Both the position numbers and the translations under genes were made by a program. From Planctomycetales bacterium (GTDB lineage: Bacteria; 4484-113; JAFGCY01), in NCBI GenBank assembly GCA_022646745.1, contig CP060262.1, forward strand, positions 2,850,001 to 2,882,000: a stretch of DNA of 32,000 nt. The letters run 5' to 3'. Within the stretch, counting starts at the first letter, position 1. Each line of letters opens with the position of its first letter. Of the stretch, positions 2,893 to 13,737 are shown piece by piece. The notes below the pieces were generated by a model. It had not been told where the DNA came from and ran no database searches. It worked only from the letters and a program-made list of their open reading frames with translations.

Positions 2893-5800
2893 ATGTTTCT
2901 GCCGGTTCGCAATAAAGCGCCGGCATTTGGGAAACACTGGACTCAGGAGTCTTCCATTCCTGAATATCTTGTCGTGCTGCTGGAATTCCTGGCCTGCATA
3001 ACTTTCTTGCTGGGCCTGTTTCTTCTGCGCGCAAGGATCAGCGACATTCCACTCTATGTCACCGTCTCCCTGACCACTGCAGCAATGTGGCTCAGCTCCG
3101 TGAGGGGTGGTGTGGTCCACATCGGCGACCTTTCCATCTACTACTCATCAGCCGTGTTCTTCAGTGCCCTGCTGGTGATCCTGATGGTTGCCTATGTGCA
3201 GGAGGGGCCTGGAGCCGGACGGATGATGCTGAGCATGATCCTCGGAAGCTCCGTACTTGTCAACGGCTTCATAGCAATGGGGATCTCCTACCTGCCGGGC
3301 CCGATGGCGGAGCAGCTAGCAGCGACCTACGACGTTTCCCTTGTGAACCTGCTGGGCAGCATCTTCGTGCTGTTCATCGACTTCTCAATCCTGACAATCA
3401 CCTATGGCCTGCTGCAGCGTTCCGGCAGCGGATCCCCGCTGTACCTGCGGATCCTCGCCGTGCTTGGGCTGGTGCAGGTGCTGGATGGCAGCCTGTTCCT
3501 GCTGATCGCGGACTTCGGCGAACCGGACCTGCTGATGATGCTGATCGGTATGGCAGCAAGCAGGCTGCTGCTGACGCTCGTAAGCTCCCCGTTCGTTTAC
3601 GTGTCACTGCAGCTGGACCGCAGGATCAGCGGACGTCACGAGGAAGGCCAGCTCCCGTTGTTCGGTCTGTTCAGCCTGGAGGACATCAAGTACAGCCGGC
3701 TAGGTAAGGAACTGAAGCTCCAGGCTGACCAGCTGCGCGAGAACGAGATGCAGTTCCGCGACCTGATCGAGAGCCTGCACGGTGTGACCTGGGAACTGGA
3801 TCTTGCCAGCCTGCAGTTCACTTACATGGGTCCACAGATTGAGAAGATGACGGGATTTGCCCCGGAACTGTGGACGGGCTTCGATTTCTGGAAGGAGCGC
3901 ATCCATCCGGATGACAGGGAACGTGCCGCTGAATTCTGCAGGCAGCAGACCAGCATGGGTCGCGACCACATCTTTGACTACCGCATTCTTCGGGCTGATG
4001 GAGCAGTAATCTGGATCAAGGACAATGTAGTCGTAGTCATGAAGGACGGCAAGGCTGTCAAGCTGAGGGGCATCCTGCTGGACATCACGGAGCAGAAGGC
4101 CGCCCAGCAGAAGCTGGTGCAAAGCGAGCAGCGTTACAGGACCATCGTGGAATTCGCCGTCGAGGCACTTGTGATCCTGGACACGGAAACCTTCAGGTTC
4201 GCGCACGCCAACCACAAGGCAGAGCAACTGTTCCGCCTGAACCGGGACAAGTTGATGCAGGTGGGCCCGCTTGAACTTAGTCCGGAGTTCCAGCCGGATG
4301 GCCGGCCATCACTTGAGAAGGGCAGGGAGTATGTGATTGCCGCGATGCACGGCAGTCCGCAGGAATTTGAGTGGATCCACCTTGACAGCACCGGAAGGGA
4401 AATCACCTGTGAGGTCCGCCTGGTCCAGATCCCCGGCCAGGACAAGCCCCTGTTGCGGGGCAGCCTGCTCGACATCACGGAGCGCAAGGCGGCGGAAAAG
4501 GAGCTTGCTGAAAGCCGGTACCGCGAGCAGGAACTGGCATTCCGCTTCAGGCTGGCCGCTGACAGTGCACGCCTCGGCATCTGGGACTTCGACCTGCTGG
4601 CCAATCGGCTGATCTGGGACCAGAGAATGCACGAGCTTTACCAGGTGCCCCCCGATAAGTTTGAAGGCAGTTTTGAAGCATGGGCGGACTGCCTGCATCC
4701 GGACGACCTTGAGGCATCCAAGATCAAGGTGGACCAGGCCCTGATGACGGATGACAATGCGGAGATGAGCTTCAGGATCGTACTGCCTGACCAGTCCATC
4801 CGCTACATCTACTCGATTGCAAGGATCCTGCGTGACGCAACCGGCCGTCCCTACCGCATGATCGGACTGAACCGTGACGTGACCGAGGAGCAACTGGCCG
4901 AGGCTGAACTCCGCAGGGCCAGGGAGATGCAGTTCAAGGCGGGAGAGATTGCCAACGTGGGTGGCTGGGAACTGGACCTCATTACGCAGAGCCTCGTCTG
5001 GAGTCCACAGACCAAGCGGATCCATGAAGTGACTGATGAATTCGAGCCCAGGCTGGAAAGTGCCATCAACTTCTATGCCCCGGAACACCGTCAGTTGATC
5101 AGCGATGCAGTCCAGCATGGCATTGAGACCGGGGAACCCTGGGACCTGGAGCTGGACCTGATCACTGCCAAGGGCAGGCGGATCCGTGTCCGCGCCGTTG
5201 GCCAGACCGATTACGTGGATGGCAAGCCGGTGCGCCTGTGGGGCGCGTTCCAGGACATCACAGAACGAGTCAGCGCGGAGCAGGAACGCCTGCACCTGCA
5301 GCAGCAGGTGCTGCATGCGCAGAAGCTCGAGAGCCTTGGTGTGCTGTCTGGTGGAATCGCGCACGACTTCAACAACCTGCTGACTTCCATCCTTGGTAAC
5401 GCGGAACTTGCAGTGGATGAGGTGGGCGACAATCCAGGGGCACGCGAGAGCATCGAGGAGATCCAGCTGGCCGCCCAGCGAGCGGCTTCACTTTCCCGCC
5501 AGATGCTCGCGTACTCCGGCAAGGGCCGATTCGTGATCGAGCAGGTCAACATCAATGAGTTCATTGAGGAAATGGCGAACCTGCTTGAGGTGTCAATCAA
5601 CAAGAAGGCCGTCATGGAGTACCAGCTCAGCGCGGAGATTCCACTGGTGATGGCGGATCCGACCCAGATCCGGCAGGTGATCATGAACCTGATCACAAAC
5701 GCATCGGAAGCTCTGGAGAACCGCAGTGGATTCATCCAGCTGCGAACCGGTACCCTCGATATCACATCCTCAGCGGAACTGCTGGAGGAGGCCGGGAGCT

Positions 5801-6535: not shown

Positions 6536-7417
6536 ATGAGCAGAACAGGTTGCCAGGTCGTCGTGCTGGGAATTGCCCAGGATGCCGGATTCCCCAGCCC
6601 GGGTTGCCAGCGTGAATGCTGCCGGAATGCCTGGCTGGACGGGCGGCCCACCCATTACCCGGCCAGCCTCGCGATAGAGGATGGCGCTGGAATGCGCTGG
6701 CTGATTGACTGCACACCGTCCTTCCCGCAGCAGCTTGCATTGCTGGACAAGGTCCTGCCGAGGGTAGCGGGCCAGCAGGCGCTGGAGGGAATCTTCCTGA
6801 GCCATGCGCATATCGGCCACTACACCGGTCTGATGTACCTGGGCAGGGAAGCCATCGGCAGCCGTGCCCTGCCGGTGCATGTGATGCCCCGAATGGCCCA
6901 TTTCCTGCGCGCCAACGGCCCCTGGAGCCAGCTGGTGGAAATTGGCAACATAGAATTGGTTGAGATATCCGCTGGCAGCCGGATTGAACTGGCAGATGGG
7001 CTGTGGATTGAACCGATGCCGGTGCTGCACCGGGCTGAGTACAGCGAAACAGTGGCGTACCGTGTCTGCACAAAGCAATCCAGCCTGCTGTTCCTGCCTG
7101 ACATTGACCGCTGGGAAGGCCTGGAACCTTCGCTTGAGGAACTCGTCAGGCAAAATGACTACCTGTTACTGGATGCCACATTCTATTCAGATGATGAACT
7201 ACCGGGCCGTGACATGGCCGAAATTCCTCATCCTACCGTGCTGGACAGCTTGGAACGCCTGTCGGCTCTACCGAAAAAACTGCGTGCCAGGGTGAATTTC
7301 TTCCACTTCAACCATACCAATCCACTGCTGGATCCGGACAGTGATCCTTCCCGGAAGGTACTTGGGCAGGGCTATGGCCGCGTTGCTGAAGGCAGTGTCT
7401 TCAATCTGCCGGCATAA
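6536..7417 (+). CDS. PqqB-like MBL-fold metallo-hydrolase family protein
   Basis: Collinear with remembered PqqB motifs: VLGIAQDAGFPSPGC, LSHAHIGHYTGLMYLGREA, LLLDATFYSDDEL, FHFNHTNPLL. Starts 22 nt after the kinase stop. Confidence 0.7.
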   Translation: MSRTGCQVVVLGIAQDAGFPSPGCQRECCRNAWLDGRPTHYPASLAIEDGAGMRWLIDCTPSFPQQLALLDKVLPRVAGQQALEGIFLSHAHIGHYTGLMYLGREAIGSRALPVHVMPRMAHFLRANGPWSQLVEIGNIELVEISAGSRIELADGLWIEPMPVLHRAEYSETVAYRVCTKQSSLLFLPDIDRWEGLEPSLEELVRQNDYLLLDATFYSDDELPGRDMAEIPHPTVLDSLERLSALPKKLRARVNFFHFNHTNPLLDPDSDPSRKVLGQGYGRVAEGSVFNLPA

Positions 7418-7500
7418 CTGCGAACAGATTATCAATAAACCCAGTCTACTGGTTTCAGTTGGTAAGATTAAGCAAGTGCTGCTGAAGGTAGGTACTAGAC

Positions 7501-8130
7501 ATGAACACCGTAAGCGCCCTGGTGGCAACTGCAGCCGTGGCTGCTGCCGCAATAACCGGAGCAAGCATCTGGCTTAGCGGCATTAGGGTCTCAGAGTCAG
7601 ACAACTGGGTTCCGGTTCCGGCCGTCACCCAGGAAGAAGCCCTGGAATTCAAGAAAAGGAAGCGAGAGATGGCACGCAGTTCTGAGGAATGGAAGGATAA
7701 GGTCAAGGACAAGCTCAGTGCCAACGAGATGAATGTCTGCTTTGGTGCAGGTACTGAGCCGCCTTTCACAGGCAAGTACTGGGACCACCACGAGAAGGGG
7801 CACTACGAGTGCACCGTCTGCGGGCAGAACCTGTTCAGCTCTGACACCAAGTACGACAGTGGCAGTGGCTGGCCTTCCTTCTACGATGTGGTAGAAAAGA
7901 GCAACCTCAAGCTGGAGGAGGACCTTTCCCTTGGCATGCGCCGGGTAGAAGTGCTCTGCAGCAACTGCGGTTCACATCTGGGACATGTGTTTGACGATGG
8001 TCCGGAGCCGACCGGCCTGCGTTATTGCATCAACTCAGCTTCGCTCCAGTTTATTGCCGATGATGGCAGCTCTGAGGCTGAAGCCGGACAGGCAGGAGCA
8101 GGTGATCGGGATGCAGGTGAGGAGCATTAG
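7501..8130 (+). CDS. msrB: peptide-methionine (R)-S-oxide reductase MsrB with N-terminal hydrophobic anchor
   Basis: SelR domain: GTEPPFTGKYW, two Zn CxxC pairs (CTVCGQ, CSNCGS), GHVFDDGP, and catalytic Cys in RYCINSASL. The N-terminus MNTVSALVATAAVAAAAITGASIWL is a TM or signal-anchor-like segment. Confidence 0.9.
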   Translation: MNTVSALVATAAVAAAAITGASIWLSGIRVSESDNWVPVPAVTQEEALEFKKRKREMARSSEEWKDKVKDKLSANEMNVCFGAGTEPPFTGKYWDHHEKGHYECTVCGQNLFSSDTKYDSGSGWPSFYDVVEKSNLKLEEDLSLGMRRVEVLCSNCGSHLGHVFDDGPEPTGLRYCINSASLQFIADDGSSEAEAGQAGAGDRDAGEEH

Positions 8131-8192
8131 CATCCTGGCATGTTCCTGAGGGCCAGGCACATTACGGAAGACCATTCAGCCGGAGATCACGC

Positions 8193-9089
8193 ATGATAAT
8201 CCAGATGCTTCTGACAGGGGTCGTCATCCCTGGCATCGTTGCCCTGGCTCTGGCACTCTTCTTCTGGCCGGCAAGGAAACCGGGAAGGAAGCCGGGCCGC
8301 CTGCCACACTGGATGGGTGGGGTTGTCCTGGCCGTGACTTTCCTGACCGGCTGGATCCTGACCCGGGGCTGGCCTGATTGGCCAGTTCGTGAGTCCGCTG
8401 CATGGCTGCCATGGCTGGCCGTCGGCGGGGCGGTGCTCGGATGGCTGGTTGCTCACCAGCGCCTGCCCGGTCCAACAGTAGCCATGCTACGGATGCTGGT
8501 TAGTGTTGTCACCATCTGGGCCACTACCCAGAGCCTGCAGACCCATACCTGGCAGAAGGCAGCCTGGCTGTGGATAATCGGTCTTGCGCTAGTGCTGTTT
8601 GCCGCGTGGTCAATCTGGGAGTCCGTGCTTGCAAAGCGGCAGGGAGTGCTGCCTCCGCTCCTGCTGACCGGTTTCTTCAGTTGCCTGGCAATCATGGCGT
8701 TGCTGGGCAGGACCGCAACGGTCAGCCAGACAACTGGCATCCTCTGCGCCGGATTGGGTGCCTTTTTTGTGGTGTCATTGGTCAGGCGTGACCTGGATCT
8801 TTCCCAGTCCACACTCTTCGTTGCCATGCCGCTCCTTGCTGGCCTGGTTGTTAACGCCCACTTCTACGCCTACATGGATGTGCTGCAGACCATGCTGCTG
8901 ATGGCATGCTGCCTGGCGGTGCTGCTGGCGGTACGGTTCACGCCAGAGGAGCCGCAGTTTGCCGGACTGCTGCTGGCCCTGCTGATCACCGTCCTGCCGG
9001 CGCTAGGCGGAATCGCCTGGGACCTGCTCAACAGCAATGTCCAGACCAGTTCCTCGGAAGAGGAAGATCCCTACGCAGAGTACTTCTAG
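8193..9089 (+). CDS. hypothetical polytopic membrane protein (about 8 TM)
   Basis: 298-aa ORF that is almost entirely hydrophobic helices, with an acidic C-terminal tail (SSSEEEDPYAEYF). GGAG lies 8 nt upstream of the ATG. No recognisable family motif. Confidence 0.6.
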   Translation: MIIQMLLTGVVIPGIVALALALFFWPARKPGRKPGRLPHWMGGVVLAVTFLTGWILTRGWPDWPVRESAAWLPWLAVGGAVLGWLVAHQRLPGPTVAMLRMLVSVVTIWATTQSLQTHTWQKAAWLWIIGLALVLFAAWSIWESVLAKRQGVLPPLLLTGFFSCLAIMALLGRTATVSQTTGILCAGLGAFFVVSLVRRDLDLSQSTLFVAMPLLAGLVVNAHFYAYMDVLQTMLLMACCLAVLLAVRFTPEEPQFAGLLLALLITVLPALGGIAWDLLNSNVQTSSSEEEDPYAEYF

Positions 9090-9103: not shown

Positions 9104-9631
9104 TCAGAGGCTGGCAATCAGGTGTTCCCGGCAGGACCGCGGACCTGTACGATGCATCAGCAGCAGCGCGGGCCGCAACCGGCCCCTGCGGCTGAGCCTG
9201 ACTGGCAGGATATGGAAGCGGCGCAGGCCGAGCCGCAGTTCCAGCCTGGCAATCTCCACCCGGCTGACGGCAATTCCCTTGGACTGGCAGAATTGCAGGA
9301 AGGCGAGGGCGTCGCGCTCGTGGCGCATGTGGCCTTCAGGCCAGTACCGGTCAGCGTAATCCTCGAAGATGGCCCGGCAGAATCCGGGGTTGCCAAAACT
9401 GCTCTCCGGCAGCAGTTCCAGTACAGCGCGCCAGCGTTTGGCAACAAGGGTCCCGCGCTGGGCAAGCAGGTCCTCCGCGGGAATCGCCAGCAGGGCAGAC
9501 CGGGCTGCCGGATCCGCAGCGTTGTCATCCAGCCATCCTGCCCGGTCGGAGATGAAGCTGCCAAGCCTGCCGCCGTCTGACAGCAGCCGCGCCAGCAGCA
9601 CCTGCTCAGTTGCCAGTTCAGGCTGCCGCAT
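9104..9631 (-). CDS. hypothetical protein; candidate MNIO partner subunit (MbnC/TglI/DUF2063-like by position)
   Basis: 175-aa ORF whose ATG (9629-9631) lies 14 nt inside the 3' end of the DUF692 gene. It is soluble and helical-looking, and ARLELRL loosely recalls the DUF2063 C-terminal region. The partner role is inferred from position only. Confidence 0.55.
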   Translation of the reverse strand: MRQPELATEQVLLARLLSDGGRLGSFISDRAGWLDDNAADPAARSALLAIPAEDLLAQRGTLVAKRWRAVLELLPESSFGNPGFCRAIFEDYADRYWPEGHMRHERDALAFLQFCQSKGIAVSRVEIARLELRLGLRRFHILPVRLSRRGRLRPALLLMHRTGPRSCREHLIASL

Positions 9632-10397
9632 GCAGGGCCTCCAGTTCAGCTATGATCTCCGCCGGCCGGGCCTGGCTGTCATCTCGCTCAAGGATCACCG
9701 CTTCCGGCTGGTGCGATTCCATGACCAGGCCGATCAGTTCCAGCAGGTCCGCCTGCAGGGGCTGGTCGTGGGAATCATGGTAGCGGCCATTGCCATCCAG
9801 CTGGTAACCGACCACATGCAGCTGCACAACCAGCTCCGCGGGGACCAGCTCTAGCCAGCGCTGGGGATCAAAGCCATGGTTGCGCGCATTGATGAACAGG
9901 TTCGTGACATCAAGCAGCAGCCTGCAGTCTGCCCGCCTGCACAATTCCACCAGGAACTCGTTTTCCGGCATGTCACCTTGCAGCCTGATGCTGCTGGTGA
10001 TGTTTTCCAGCAGCAGCGGGCGTTCAAGCCGTTCCTGCAGCTCCTGTGCATTGCTCGCGATGGTCTGCAGGTTGGCGCGTGTCGGGGACAGTGGGTTGAG
10101 GTGCCCGAGGTCGATTCCCCCGGCGCGGGTGAAGGCTACGTGCTCGCTGATCCAATGTGGCTGGCAGGCATCGCAGACCTGCTTGAAGCCCCGCAGGTAT
10201 TCCTCATCCATCGGCCCGGGGGTTCCCAGTGAACAGCTCAGGCCATGCACGAACACTGGGTAGCGTCCGGACAATTCAGCCAGCTGCTGCCTGCCGGAAT
10301 CAAGGAAGTGGTCAGGCACTATCTCCAGGCACTGGATCCTGTCATCTCCAATGCTGATCATACCTGCGAGGTTGCGCCGCCAGCCGATGCCGATCAT
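9618..10397 (-). CDS. DUF692 / MNIO (multinuclear non-heme iron-dependent oxidative) family enzyme
   Basis: TIM-barrel DUF692 motif series: MIGIGWRR, FVHGLSCSLG, ISEHVAF, LLLENI, LLDVTNLFINARNHG, LHVVGY, YHDSHDQPL, VILERDD. I prefer the ATG at 10395-10397, which forms an ATGA overlap with the upstream stop. The longer ORF start at 10436 is a TTG inside the upstream gene. Confidence 0.85.
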   Translation of the reverse strand: MIGIGWRRNLAGMISIGDDRIQCLEIVPDHFLDSGRQQLAELSGRYPVFVHGLSCSLGTPGPMDEEYLRGFKQVCDACQPHWISEHVAFTRAGGIDLGHLNPLSPTRANLQTIASNAQELQERLERPLLLENITSSIRLQGDMPENEFLVELCRRADCRLLLDVTNLFINARNHGFDPQRWLELVPAELVVQLHVVGYQLDGNGRYHDSHDQPLQADLLELIGLVMESHQPEAVILERDDSQARPAEIIAELEALHAAA

Positions 10398-11104
10398 CCG
10401 CAACCCCCGCAACCGCCTCCGCAGCCTCCGCCACAACCTCCGCCGCAGCTGCTGCAGGATGTGCAGCCAGCCACCCCATAGCCACCGCGGCCGTCATTCA
10501 TGCTTGTCACGCTCGACAGGAATGCCATGCTGCCGATTCCCATCAGGATGACCATGTAGGTCCACTTGTGCATGCCATGCTGGATACCGTAGAGGTAGCG
10601 CTCCGCACCGATCAGCAGGAAGAAGCCCAGGCCGATGAAATTCAGCCCGTCATGCTTGCCGATCATCTGCCGCAGGATATGTACGGCGGCCACCATCAGG
10701 ACTCCGATGATGGCGTAATAAACGAGGAATTCCGGACCCTTGAGGAATGGGAACATCAGGTAACTGACCACTCCTGTAGCCAGTCCGACCAGTGCCATCG
10801 ATCCGAAAACGGCACTGGCCCTGCCGGAATCAAACTCTGCAGCTGAGCTCGTTGTTTCCAGCGGTGGCAAGCTCTGGTTCAGTGCCACGGATGGTGATGA
10901 CTGCAACTGGACTATGCCTGGCGATGCCTGAGGTTCATAGGAATGTTCCTCGTGCCATGGAAGTGCTTCATGCAGGCGGAATGTGGCTCCACAGTTGCTG
11001 CACTGCTGCAGCATGCCGGGGAAATGCTTGCTGGGAAGCTCAAAACGCCGCAGGCAGCTCGGGCAGCGCAGGAACTGGTCCTGCTCCCGGCTCACAGCTC
11101 CCAC
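10394..11104 (-). CDS. zinc-ribbon / 4-TM membrane protein with C-terminal Cys-Gly repeat tail; putative MNIO substrate (TIGR04222-like)
   Basis: GTG start at 11104 or 11095. N-terminal CPSC-x17-CSNC zinc ribbon and a Ser/Pro/Gln linker. Four hydrophobic helices, including a GPEFLVYY helix start. The tail is GCTSCSSCGGGCGGGCGGGCGGCG followed by the stop. Confidence 0.8.
   Translation of the reverse strand: MGAVSREQDQFLRCPSCLRRFELPSKHFPGMLQQCSNCGATFRLHEALPWHEEHSYEPQASPGIVQLQSSPSVALNQSLPPLETTSSAAEFDSGRASAVFGSMALVGLATGVVSYLMFPFLKGPEFLVYYAIIGVLMVAAVHILRQMIGKHDGLNFIGLGFFLLIGAERYLYGIQHGMHKWTYMVILMGIGSMAFLSSVTSMNDGRGGYGVAGCTSCSSCGGGCGGGCGGGCGGCG
10397..10465 (-). repeat. coding tandem repeat (TGY GGN GGN GGN) specifying the CTSCSSC(GGGC)3GGCG tail
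   Basis: Minus-strand codons read tgc aca tcc tgc agc agc tgc ggc gga ggt tgt ggc gga ggc tgc gga ggc ggt tgc ggg ggt tgc gga tga. Synonymous codons differ between repeat units. Confidence 0.9.
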
Positions 11105-11838
11105 CTGCCAGCCATGTAATCCAATGCTCCCTGCAGGACGTCCAGCAGCTGCCTGTGCAGCTCATGGATGTCCGCTGATCGATCACTACCTTCGCGCAGT
11201 CCGATCAGTGTGTCGAGCAGGGCCTGTTCTATTCCGAGCTCCCGCGCCAGCAGGGGCGCCTGCAGCCGGCGCTCATCTGGAACCTCGCTGCCTTCCAGGC
11301 GCAGCAGTTCAGCCAGGTCGGCGAAGATACGCGGTACCGCACCACGCAGTATCCGCAGGTATCGCTCCGGCTGGTCCGTGTTCTGGATGTAGGCATTGCC
11401 GAGCCGCATCCAGCTGTTTCGCAGGCCCTGCTCCAGCAGGAACTGCCGGCGAGGGATAGAGACTTCGAAACCACTGAATGGGTCAGTCCCATACAGTAGT
11501 TCATCCCGGCGGGCGATATCGGAGAACTTAAGCGCGAAGGCCTGCATGCTTCGATCCAGGCCCTTGCTGGACAGTACAAGCGGACTGATGTTCAGTCCAC
11601 TGTCCCTGATTGTCTGGGAAATGCTGCGCTGGGCTGCCGCCGTGTTCTGCTTCAGCACAATGAGCAGGTTGATGTCAGAGCTGCCGCGACTGAAGTCATT
11701 GCGGACGGAGCTGCCGTACAACACAAGGCTTTCCAGGTTGTCCCCCAATGAGGAAGCAAATGTATCACGCAGTCCATCCATCGAACTGCGCAGCTGCTGG
11801 GTGATGGGCATGCAAGTAGTGTAGGGGAGTAGCCCCAT
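11092..11838 (-). CDS. nucleotidyltransferase-fold protein (KNTase/MNT-like N-domain plus helical C-domain), degenerate active-site motif
   Basis: LVLYGSSVRNDFSRGSSDINLLIVL matches the pol-beta NTase G-S...D-x-D pattern, except that the second acidic residue is Asn (DIN). Stop TGA at 11092-11094 overlaps the next gene's GTG. An alternative ATG exists at 11811. Confidence 0.7.
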   Translation of the reverse strand: MGLLPYTTCMPITQQLRSSMDGLRDTFASSLGDNLESLVLYGSSVRNDFSRGSSDINLLIVLKQNTAAAQRSISQTIRDSGLNISPLVLSSKGLDRSMQAFALKFSDIARRDELLYGTDPFSGFEVSIPRRQFLLEQGLRNSWMRLGNAYIQNTDQPERYLRILRGAVPRIFADLAELLRLEGSEVPDERRLQAPLLARELGIEQALLDTLIGLREGSDRSADIHELHRQLLDVLQGALDYMAGRWEL

Positions 11839-11855: not shown

Positions 11856-11886
11856 AAAAAAAAAGGGCGACCCCGGAGGGTCGCCC
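11856..11886 (-). terminator. intrinsic terminator downstream of the porin gene
   Basis: The minus strand reads GGGCGACCC-TCCG-GGGTCGCCC followed by nine T. This is a perfect 9-bp GC stem beginning 15 nt after the porin TAA. Confidence 0.85.
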
Positions 11887-11901: not shown

Positions 11902-13590
11902 TTAGAACTTGAAGATCCAGTCCAGCTGGATGGTCTGATGATCATCCAGGTTGTTCGGGATCAGGAAGCCGTAGGCGTTGTGCATCTTGGAAAGGATGTA
12001 GGTCACGCCGACGGTCGCGTTCGGGCTCCACATGTACTGCCAGCCCCACTCGAAGGAGTTACGGTTGGCACCACCGGTGTCGCTGTCAGCAAGGCCGTGG
12101 ATCACGGTGTTGGCACCGATCTCCTTGTAACGGGCATAGGTGTACCAGTCACCGCAGTGAGCAGGCTTGGTGCCGTACTGGCCGCCCACGACGAAACCGG
12201 TATCATCGGTGTCCTCGTAGATGAAGCCGGAGGCAAGGCCGCCGTTCACGATGGCGATGTTGGTGTCAGCGTCGCTATCGCAGGTGAACATGTACTCACC
12301 GTAGATGCTCAGCGGCTTGTCCCAGGTGCAGGGCCAGGTGTACTGGAGGCCAGCCTTGGTGACGCTGAAGTTGCTGTTGAAGCGATCGAGGCCGTTGATG
12401 ACGCCGTCGCCGTTGAAGTCGAAGATGCTGCCGTCAGCCAGGGTAAAACCGTTGCCGGTGAAGTAGCTGGCGGGCAGGTTGTTCTCTTCCTTCCAGCCGT
12501 AGCTGCCGACCCACACGTCGAGGTTATCGACGAGGAAGTTGTCGTGACGCAGCTCGGTGGCGAAGAAGTAGGTGTCATCATCGAAGTAGTCGCTGCCGTT
12601 GACCTCAACCGCCACGGAGGCGACGCTGGTCAGCTGGAAGTCCTCGTTGAAGTGGTACATGATGCCGAGACCCTGAAGGTTCACGTCATCGTCGAGGATC
12701 ATCTCGTTCGGGTCGGTCAGGATGTTCGGGAAGATACCACCGTAGATGTCAAGCTTGGCATGGCAGGTGCAACCTTCCTTCTTGCCGCAGCTGTTGCAAC
12801 CGCTGTTGCACTGGCCGCAGCTACCGCCGCAACTGTTACCGTTGCAGCTGCTGCACTTGTCGCAGCAATCCTTCTCGGGGCAGTCCTGGTAATAACCGAA
12901 CCAGCTCGGGCTGTACTTGAAGTAAGCCTGATCGAGGAAGATGTCAGCGGTACGACCGTTGTTACCAAGGGTCCAGTTGCCGCTGGTGGCATCGTTACCG
13001 GTGTTGGTCTCCAGACGGAAGCCAACCATCACGCAGTCGTTGATCTGCTTGTTGTAACCAAGACGGAAACGAATACGCTGACGGAAACGCTCGTTGTTGG
13101 CCCAGTCCTCAAACTGCCAACGGTAGCGCAGCTCGCCCTTCCACTCCGGACCCGGCTTGAGACCGGAGACCTTGTCCTCGAGGGAGCCAATACGGTTAGT
13201 GTTGTCCGCGACACTACCCTCAAGGTCCGTCATGGTGGAATGCATATCGTTCACCTGGTTACCCAGGGCATCAACTTTCCCGCCGAGGCTGGCAAGCTGA
13301 TCAGAGAATTCCGCGCGAAGGGTTTCGGCCATGATGTTGATGTCTTCAGGAGAGCCCTCACCAACCGTGTCCAGCAGACGAGCAATTGCCTGAGCGAACT
13401 CGTAGCGGGTCAGGGTGCGGTCTCCCTTGAAGAATCCATCCGGATAACCTTCGAGCACACCACGGTGCGTAAGGTAATCCAGAGCGTTGTACGCCCAGTG
13501 ATCAGTGCTGACATCGTCATACGCGCTCTGCGCGAATGCCGTACCACACATGATCACCAGAGCCAGCAGTGAAGAAATAAGATATCTCAC
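11902..13590 (-). CDS. SLH-domain outer-membrane beta-barrel porin with coiled-coil linker
   Basis: Signal peptide RYLISSLLALVIMCGTAFA/QS. SLH motif DVSTDHWAYNALDYLTHRGVLEGYPDGFFKGDRTLTRYEFAQAIARLL. A coiled-coil segment is followed by alternating aromatic beta-strand pattern and a C-terminal IQLDWIFKF. AGGAG sits 6 nt before the GTG at 13590; the ORF track's TTG at 13596 abuts the SD. Confidence 0.85.
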   Translation of the reverse strand: MRYLISSLLALVIMCGTAFAQSAYDDVSTDHWAYNALDYLTHRGVLEGYPDGFFKGDRTLTRYEFAQAIARLLDTVGEGSPEDINIMAETLRAEFSDQLASLGGKVDALGNQVNDMHSTMTDLEGSVADNTNRIGSLEDKVSGLKPGPEWKGELRYRWQFEDWANNERFRQRIRFRLGYNKQINDCVMVGFRLETNTGNDATSGNWTLGNNGRTADIFLDQAYFKYSPSWFGYYQDCPEKDCCDKCSSCNGNSCGGSCGQCNSGCNSCGKKEGCTCHAKLDIYGGIFPNILTDPNEMILDDDVNLQGLGIMYHFNEDFQLTSVASVAVEVNGSDYFDDDTYFFATELRHDNFLVDNLDVWVGSYGWKEENNLPASYFTGNGFTLADGSIFDFNGDGVINGLDRFNSNFSVTKAGLQYTWPCTWDKPLSIYGEYMFTCDSDADTNIAIVNGGLASGFIYEDTDDTGFVVGGQYGTKPAHCGDWYTYARYKEIGANTVIHGLADSDTGGANRNSFEWGWQYMWSPNATVGVTYILSKMHNAYGFLIPNNLDDHQTIQLDWIFKF

Positions 13591-13737
13591 TTCCAACTCC
13601 TATTGATAGTGGGTTGAAATACATGCGGGAAGACAGCGCGCCATCCCGACTTGCTCCCTTCGCGAGATCTTCACTCTGGATAACCGGCATCTATAACCTC
13701 AGAAATCCTTCACGCAGATCCCACTTCGGGATTCGCC

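Follow-up and report, generated by a model that had tools for sequence, protein, structure and literature searches.

The MNIO (DUF692) enzymes characterized so far each modify a small soluble peptide, and most of these peptides are then exported. The captophorins, comprised of the bufferins (BufABC), oxazolin (HvfABC) and fontiphorin (FonABC), are copper-binding peptides bearing 5-thiooxazoles installed by an MNIO; their precursors carry Sec signals and are exported, their partner proteins are of the DUF2063-RRE kind (PME-type 1), and DoxX is often present. In the methanobactin (MbnBC) and pearlin (TglHI) systems, a heteromeric pair of MNIO and small partner acts on Cys of a ribosomal peptide; MbnB yields an oxazolone/thioamide and TglH a C-terminal Cys excised at its β-carbon. 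A further group has been described in silico only, in which subsets of the TIGR04222 membrane proteins are proposed as MNIO substrates with PME-type 2 partners, a proposal extended to the signature-less, Cys-rich adjamnio-I proteins (cluster I; 122-293 aa, 8-21 Cys) (Antoine et al., Microb Genom 2025, PMC12452194). The subject here is a four-gene cassette in a stretch of 32,000 nucleotides, referred to as the window, from a planctomycete contig (CP060262.1, assembly GCA_022646745.1), which encodes a nucleotidyltransferase (NTase)-like protein, a membrane protein ending in a Cys/Gly-rich tail, an MNIO and a small partner. It is a real and conserved system, and comparative genomics lends good support to the view that the tail is quite probably the substrate of the MNIO, a concept that is not in itself new.

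The cassette resembles the captophorin systems in an MNIO nearest to BufB and HvfB with the full ligand set and ERD Asp, in multiple Cys residues held in a small-residue context with Cys-Gly dyads, and in the gene order of substrate, MNIO and partner. It differs from them in that a signal peptide and DoxX are missing, the candidate substrate has an integral membrane anchor, the 175-aa partner is probably of PME-type 2, an NTase-like gene is added, and the MNIO falls under the cut-offs of both equivalog models. Neither the DUF2063-RRE partner nor the Sec-signal precursor by which captophorin-type biosynthetic gene clusters are recognized (Gadgil et al. 2026) is present. The heteromeric arrangement of MNIO and small partner acting on ribosomal Cys is shared with MbnBC and TglHI, and the modelled partner superposes best on MbnC (TM-score 0.39) and NGO1945 (TM-score 0.36), whereas sequence similarity to these enzymes is low (39 bits for MbnB, 64 bits for TglH) and their substrates are short soluble peptides.

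With the TIGR04222 and adjamnio-I groups, the cassette shares a Cys-rich protein without signal peptide encoded directly upstream of the MNIO, followed by a partner that is not DUF2063. The likeness to TIGR04222 extends to a Ser/Gly/Cys tail with an identical GGCGGCG end and to a GP(E/D)FLxxY motif found N-terminally in both, and hhalign relates the two families at 98.8% probability over the last transmembrane (TM) helix and tail only. The TIGR04222 hidden Markov model (HMM), in contrast, gave no match at E<=10 in 30 of 30 family members, the window protein included, and the zinc ribbon, the compact 4-TM bundle, the missing large central domain and a tail that is likely cytoplasmic, rather than periplasmic as predicted there, set the present family apart. 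The pairing of TIGR04222 with DUF692, named in an earlier note made on this DNA from its sequence, thus applies to the last helix and the tail and not to the family model. That note also took the NTase-like and partner genes for additions particular to this version, which they are not. Beside MNIOs with classical TIGR04222-type tail proteins (280-290 aa), an NTase-like homolog bearing an SDVN motif precedes in two loci (L082 and L083), and a 'mini-partner' of 69-83 aa that matches the partner family profile follows in two (L083 and L085). The sibling cassette partners KAB2644307.1 and WP_197996608.1 already stand in the published PME-type 2 list, as does one sibling cassette MNIO, so that the system lies inside the published data set; KAB2644305, the expected sibling tail protein, is not among the supplement entries listed (PMC12452194). 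Compared with the published description of adjamnio-I, the window protein fits in length (236 aa), Cys content (11) and gene order. The novelty of the idea had therefore been overstated, while its core, a tail that serves as substrate with no hidden precursor, is strongly favoured by synteny, tail invariance, tandem genes and Cys-Gly context, and the view that the system is experimentally uncharacterized agrees with the searchable literature, in which nothing experimental was found, nor any paper linking the NTase-like gene to MNIOs or following up these families. Three features are absent from the description by Antoine et al. (2025): a conserved NTase-like member with an SDxN motif, a GGCGGCG terminus that is invariant across anchor types, and the inferred cytoplasmic location of the tail.

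Conservation of the four-gene set

An alignment of cassette MNIOs (A4) scanned against one genome per GTDB species returned 74 loci, mostly from Verrucomicrobiota and Planctomycetota, with Acidobacteriota, Gamma- and Alphaproteobacteria, Myxococcota, Fimbriimonadales, Chthonomonadaceae and Limnocylindrales among the other labels. Synteny was called by HMMs, and upstream genes were counted over the 59 non-redundant species-level loci with at least 2.3 kb of upstream sequence. In 48 of these 59 loci, the gene immediately upstream of the MNIO is of the tail family, bearing out the synteny on which the earlier interpretation had been staked, and three further loci carry the tail on other anchors, bringing tail proteins to 51. 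The NTase-like gene is found in 49 loci and together with the tail gene in 46; the full order is present in Verrucomicrobiota, Planctomycetota, Acidobacteriota and Gammaproteobacteria, and in single loci labelled Alphaproteobacteria, Fimbriimonadales and Limnocylindrales. Partner homologs follow the MNIO in 71 of 78 loci. The same order of NTase-like gene, tail gene, MNIO and partner recurs in three metagenome loci reached through tail-protein homologs (L001, L003 and L004), whose flanks, inspected gene by gene, differ from those of the window, and the cassette is carried by the cultured Gimesia maris and G. panareensis. Median gaps at the three junctions across relatives are -4, +2 and -20 nt (start positions being approximate). 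Clustering of flanking open reading frames (ORFs) in the 74 loci gave no conserved fifth gene, no protease and no exporter or transporter, and a fifth member of the protease or exporter kind was rejected on this ground.

The tail gene varies in copy number and form. Two tandem copies with differing tails occur in five loci (L040, L046, L061, L064 and L079, at about 3.4-5.0 kb in each), all from Planctomycetota or planctomycete lineages. In the verrucomicrobial locus L017, the polytopic protein is replaced by two single-TM peptides of 63-67 aa (3744-3947 and 4052-4243) that end ...CGSSCSSGCGGGCGGGD and sit between the NTase-like gene and the MNIO, and in loci L073 and L075 the tail is borne on yet other anchors. 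Two unusual arrangements were also seen: an MNIO match inside a 783-aa ORF that is possibly a fusion (L074:2684-5041), and an NTase-like gene split in two ORFs, with the tail-protein match in a 377-aa ORF overlapping the second (L070:3608-4995), which could reflect a frameshift or an assembly error.

The Cys/Gly tail as candidate substrate

The tail protein is comprised of a zinc ribbon, a linker, a 4-TM bundle and a Cys/Gly tail, and belongs to a family of 118 metagenomic relatives with no close relative (best identity about 30%). In the AlphaFold2 (AF2) model of the 236-aa form, a disordered linker joins the strands of the zinc ribbon to four long helices, and the tail that follows is likewise disordered. 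The two knuckles of the ribbon (C14-x2-C17 and C35-x2-C38) lie in a small beta-hairpin domain, as expected of a zinc ribbon, and the CPxC...CxxC pattern is kept in the long forms of the family alignment; its strands are modelled with a pLDDT (per-residue model confidence) of about 90 and match LysW (3vpb_E) by Foldseek with a root-mean-square deviation of 1.0 A over 33 residues (probability 0.87), while Pfam Zn_ribbon_4 scores 21.3 bits, under its cut-off. The helices of the bundle (93-120, 123-148, 152-175 and 182-203) have pLDDT above 90 and carry conserved motifs, namely GP(E/D)FL..Y, the invariant Arg R169 and GMHK(F/W); no significant PDB match to the bundle was found by Foldseek.

The end of the tail is strictly maintained. 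GGCGGCG is invariant in the 30-sequence family alignment (A1) and lies within the last 12 residues in 56 of 63 tails, and the residue following a tail Cys (n=349) is Gly in 78% and Ser in 20% of cases, or one of the two in 98%. A chance low-complexity translation of GC-rich DNA was rejected, as the tail draws on all four Gly codons and its conservation spans phyla. The same tail is borne by 4-TM zinc-ribbon proteins, 3-TM short forms lacking the ribbon (the usual form in Verrucomicrobiota), an ankyrin fusion, the single-TM peptides of 63-67 aa, other anchors and TIGR04222-type proteins; in sequence comparison, the tail stays constant and what changes is the anchor. In the ankyrin fusion, a 252-aa metagenomic relative (P0002), N-terminal ankyrin repeats replace the zinc ribbon and the TM block and Cys/Gly tail are retained.

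The position of the tail gene in the operon, which is that of a precursor, its tandem duplicates and the invariant tail on variable anchors all point to the tail as substrate, as do Cys-Gly dyads that suit a characterized enzyme and the lack of an alternative precursor. Tandem precursor genes are frequent in systems for peptides that are made on ribosomes and modified after translation (RiPPs). A hidden small precursor was rejected: the overlapping genes leave no space for a further ORF inside the operon, as the earlier note had said, and such small ORFs rich in Cys as the 32-kb window contains are all off-frame shadow ORFs, none of them a plausible precursor. The tail could conceivably escape modification altogether, binding metals as it stands in the manner of a metallothionein-like or Fe-S-type Cys array, or anchoring or regulating an MNIO complex that in fact acts on a small molecule or on the product of a gene elsewhere. 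Cys/Gly-rich tails would be capable of such binding, and one third of genomes with TIGR04222 genes have no MNIO at all (PMC12452194), but very tight coupling to the MNIO gene (an ATGA overlap here and a median of +2 nt elsewhere), the presence of tail proteins in 51 of 59 testable loci, the lack of an alternative precursor in the window and the fact that all characterized MNIOs act on peptides encoded alongside them leave this explanation most improbable.

A second alternative accepts the tail as substrate and takes the membrane protein for a true RiPP precursor, in which the TM block and zinc ribbon would form the leader and the modified tail would be cleaved off and freed or exported as a captophorin-like peptide. 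The order of precursor, MNIO and partner is that of RiPP clusters, and the tandem copies and very short 63-67 aa versions are in keeping with it. Against it stand the missing protease and transporter in the 74 loci, the absence of a conserved cleavage motif between TM4 and the tail in the family alignment and the loci, and the conserved motifs that the TM block has of its own (GPEFL, R169 and GMHKF), which suggest a role beyond that of a leader; this explanation is very unlikely.

Membrane topology and proposed chemistry

A cytoplasmic location of the tail is likely, if slightly less so than the substrate assignment itself. In the AF2 model, four membrane-length helices are joined by loops of 2-6 residues, so that the N- and C-termini would be on the same side. 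The N-terminus is a zinc ribbon and not a Sec signal peptide; across the family, Lys and Arg abound in the N-terminal region, which has no signal peptide. A zinc ribbon of the Cys4 type would be expected in the cytoplasm, and this N-terminus with the four helices would place both termini there. The short N-tail of the 3-TM forms is poor in Lys and Arg, and a Lys lies just past the helix in the single-TM variants; both favour the same C-terminus-in orientation. No signal sequence was apparent on reading the N-termini of the MNIO, the partner and the NTase-like protein, and a cytoplasmic tail would be consistent with its being modified where it sits, by enzymes of the cytoplasm and without export.

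The opposite arrangement would have the tail in the periplasm, either modified before insertion or not modified by the cytoplasmic MNIO at all. A periplasmic tail has been predicted for the TIGR04222 proteins (Antoine et al. 2025, PMC12452194), and bufferins and oxazolin do function in the periplasm. A crude hydropathy scan also counts against the cytoplasmic assignment, since TM3, which holds the conserved Glu/Arg, is weakly hydrophobic in many members and was called in only some. Set against these points are the four tightly looped helices of the model, the roughly 90-aa signal-less zinc-ribbon region rich in Lys and Arg, and the orientation of the three-helix and single-TM forms, which together render a periplasmic tail improbable.

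The MNIO scores 236 bits with Pfam MbnB_TglH_ChrH (PF05114; gathering cut-off 25) over residues 2-257 of 259, in keeping with its first assignment to DUF692. In the alignment, H51, H86, E131, D163, N166, H194, D208, H210 and E237 are identical to the corresponding residues of MbnB, which we take from the MbnBC structures to be iron ligands. These columns are invariant in 73 related cassette MNIOs, with the sole exception of D163 replaced by Asn in one, and the ERD Asp is invariant among relatives, so that the enzyme does keep every conserved His/Asp/Glu motif, as first read. The nearest NCBIfam models are BufB (NF050167; 201.8 bits against a cut-off of 310) and HvfB (NF003818; 171.7 against 360), followed by ApyH (100 bits) and MbnB (69 bits); membership in the BufB and HvfB equivalogs is not reached, and they are still the closest models. 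Among PDB entries, the MNIO matches 3bww, TglH (second best) and MbnB by sequence.

BufB and HvfB form thiooxazoles, and for FonB, a further MNIO that makes 5-thiooxazoles, the preferred site is a Cys-Gly dyad followed by a small residue, the small-residue context of captophorin type that the tail displays. As BufB, HvfB and FonB, the closest characterized enzymes, convert Cys to copper-binding 5-thiooxazoles, a thiooxazole array is the likeliest product, with roughly an even chance of being correct; the chances that the array binds metal are judged about equally balanced. A serious rival, itself unlikely, holds that the tail is the substrate of other chemistry, whether oxazolone/thioamide formation, β-carbon excision of the TglH kind, or the linking of closely spaced Cys to one another by thioether or other bonds, and maybe with no copper array. 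The MNIO falls under both equivalog cut-offs, its second-best PDB match is TglH, and its partner, probably of PME-type 2, is unlike the DUF2063/RRE proteins found in every characterized thiooxazole system; the MNIOs with PME-type 2 partners include the non-thiooxazole enzymes TglH, ApyH and PbsC (Antoine et al. 2025, PMC12452194). On the other side, BufB and HvfB outscore the other models by a wide margin, the Cys-Gly dyads match the substrate preference of thiooxazole formers, and the MNIOs of TIGR04222-type loci have been placed near the bufferin enzymes (Antoine et al. 2025, PMC12452194).

The thiooxazole reading can be put as a scheme in which the 4-TM protein would insert in the inner membrane so that the zinc ribbon at its N-terminus, and hence its C-terminal tail, would face the cytoplasm. 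There, the MNIO, which the small helical partner would hold or activate, would oxidize the Cys residues of the repeated Gly-Cys-Gly units, likely to an array of 5-thiooxazoles such as those made by BufB, HvfB and FonB. The product would be neither cleaved nor exported and would stay a membrane-tethered array of soft-metal (Cu) ligands, and the NTase-fold protein would be a third conserved accessory that may handle or scaffold the tail or act as a non-canonical transferase. Such a self-contained four-gene maturation module is the favoured explanation, and as a whole it stands about an even chance. Several points weigh against it beyond those of topology: the argument for the substrate is comparative-genomic throughout; characterized MNIO products carry signal peptides and are exported, and offer no obvious parallel to an array that would bind copper in the cytoplasm; an enzyme scoring below the BufB and HvfB cut-offs may possibly perform different chemistry; the fold matches of the modelled partner are not significant; and about 15% of testable loci are without the NTase-like gene, which is therefore not strictly required. 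A larger reading, possible but doubtful, would see the tail as an uncleaved protein-derived cofactor, a poly-(thio)heterocycle array on a cytoplasmic membrane-protein tail, with the SDxN NTase-fold protein as a third maturation factor that, for example, nucleotidylylates or chaperones the tail; this would amount to a new class of membrane-tethered intracellular metal or redox device, widespread in Planctomycetota and Verrucomicrobiota.

Should an MNIO indeed modify the tail of a membrane protein, the family would extend from natural-product biosynthesis to protein post-translational modification, the more so if the tail is cytoplasmic, and such a result would test a prediction published in 2025. 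The comparisons provide a minimal four-gene set, an invariant candidate target motif (GGCGGCG), a previously unnoted SDxN NTase-like factor and cultured hosts, and the cassette may matter for metal handling in the Verrucomicrobiota and Planctomycetota, where it is mainly found.

Accessory proteins and locus layout

The NTase-like protein matches Pfam NTP_transf_2 at 21.5 bits, just over the cut-off of 21, and its family profile retrieves from the PDB the NTase 9xbd_E (E=0.003) and ANT(3'')(9) (E of 0.01-0.04), so that its assignment to a Pol-beta-like, ANT(3'')-like two-domain fold is borderline. Like the ANT(3'')/ANT(9) and kanamycin nucleotidyltransferases, it is about 250 aa long, with an alignable N-terminal hG[SG]-x10-SD motif and a helical C-terminal half. 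Unlike them, it has a conserved Asn in place of the second metal-binding Asp, within the motif hG[SG]-x10-S-D-[VIL]-N, and its scores against the ANT and kanamycin nucleotidyltransferase models are all far under the family cut-offs. G42-S43 and D55 are conserved, and Asn occupies position 57 in 46 of the 55 cassette members and in 132 of the 151 wider relatives, against Asp in 1 and 8, respectively; the canonical Pol-beta motif hG[GS]...[DE]h[DE]h is accordingly lacking its second acidic residue. Residue 85, presumably aligned with the ANT catalytic base, shows no conservation; the window protein has Ser there. The fold first proposed for this gene is upheld at borderline strength, its motif is SDxN in place of the catalytic DxD, and the protein could serve either as an enzyme of non-canonical kind or as a scaffold with no catalysis of its own. 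Its SDxN subfamily is distinct, with about 580 clusters at E<=1e-10.

The partner has neither DUF2063, for which it was checked as the earlier note had proposed, nor any other Pfam or NCBIfam match in the copies searched. Its relatives were gathered by a profile search (a single-sequence search gave 2 proteins), and 93 of the 105 listed carry a precomputed match to PF26136, the 'SCO6045-like C-terminal domain'. The AF2 model (pLDDT 91.8) has an eight-helix domain followed by a three-stranded sheet, for which Foldseek found no significant PDB match (best E 0.42); the only matches with a TM-score above 0.3 are MbnC (7dz9_C) and NGO1945 (3dee), each below 0.4 and with E above 1. PME-type 2 partners are encoded just after the MNIO, have no DUF2063 signature and are structurally akin to NGO1945 (3dee) or TglI (Antoine et al. 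2025, PMC12452194); the cassette partner agrees in position and in the missing signature, and its own structural match is weak. Two side observations concern this family: against PDB sequences, the partner profile gave a single, weak likeness, over its N-terminal 55 aa or so, to the LigA/nitrile-hydratase-leader-like domain of the RiPP precursor SonA (E about 0.05), which may be chance or a hint of a common helical module, and one relative (P0215) has a precomputed PF07746 match.

Direct reading of the minus strand confirms, to the nucleotide, that the four genes overlap stop-to-start as one compact unit (Table 1). The NTase-like TGA (11094..11092) overlaps the GTG of the tail gene (11095..11093) as GTGA, the tail-protein TGA (10396..10394) overlaps the MNIO ATG (10397..10395) as ATGA, and the MNIO TGA (9620..9618) and the partner ATG (9631..9629) give an overlap of 14 nt. 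A second in-frame GTG for the tail protein lies at 11104..11102, and gene callers chose the GTGA start, giving the 233-aa form, on three independent metagenome contigs with an identical MNIO, which is present on 12 such contigs in all. The partner is 100% identical to the H7A35_11225 protein of a 'Planctomycetales bacterium' metagenome-assembled genome. The unit is bounded upstream by the terminator of an SLH-porin gene and at the other end by a convergent gene (8193-9089).

Table 1 Coordinates of the cassette, its protein segments and associated features (window positions, or locus and positions where a locus is named)
Feature	Coordinates	Strand	Description
NTase-like gene	11092..11838	minus	248 aa, first gene of cassette
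Tail-bearing membrane protein gene	10394..11104	minus	236 aa; 233 aa from GTG 11095
Zinc ribbon	10991..11065	minus	aa 14-38, CPSC...CSNC
Four-helix transmembrane bundle	10496..10828	minus	aa 93-203; from AF2, hydropathy and conserved columns
Disordered Ser/Gly/Cys tail	10397..10495	minus	aa 204-236, ends CGGGCGGGCGGGCGGCG, 7 Cys; proposed modification site
MNIO (DUF692) gene	9618..10397	minus	259 aa, full metal-ligand set
Partner gene	9104..9631	minus	175 aa
Intrinsic terminator of upstream SLH-porin gene	11865..11886	minus	9-bp stem, 8 GC pairs, then T-run
Classical TIGR04222-type locus features	L082:2295-3035, L083:1151-1906, L083:3620-3871, L085:6663-6872		

The upstream gene on the same strand (11902-13596, minus) encodes a 564-aa protein with SLH and Porin_5 domains and an internal Cys-rich insert, CPEKDCCDKCSSCNGNSCGGSCGQCNSGCNSCGKKEGCTCH, and the strong terminator stands between it and the cassette. 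Downstream, on the opposite strand (6536-9089, plus), are genes for a Lactamase_B_2 protein, for an MsrB (SelR) whose N-terminus includes a hydrophobic segment, and for a polytopic membrane protein of 298 aa that has no Pfam match.

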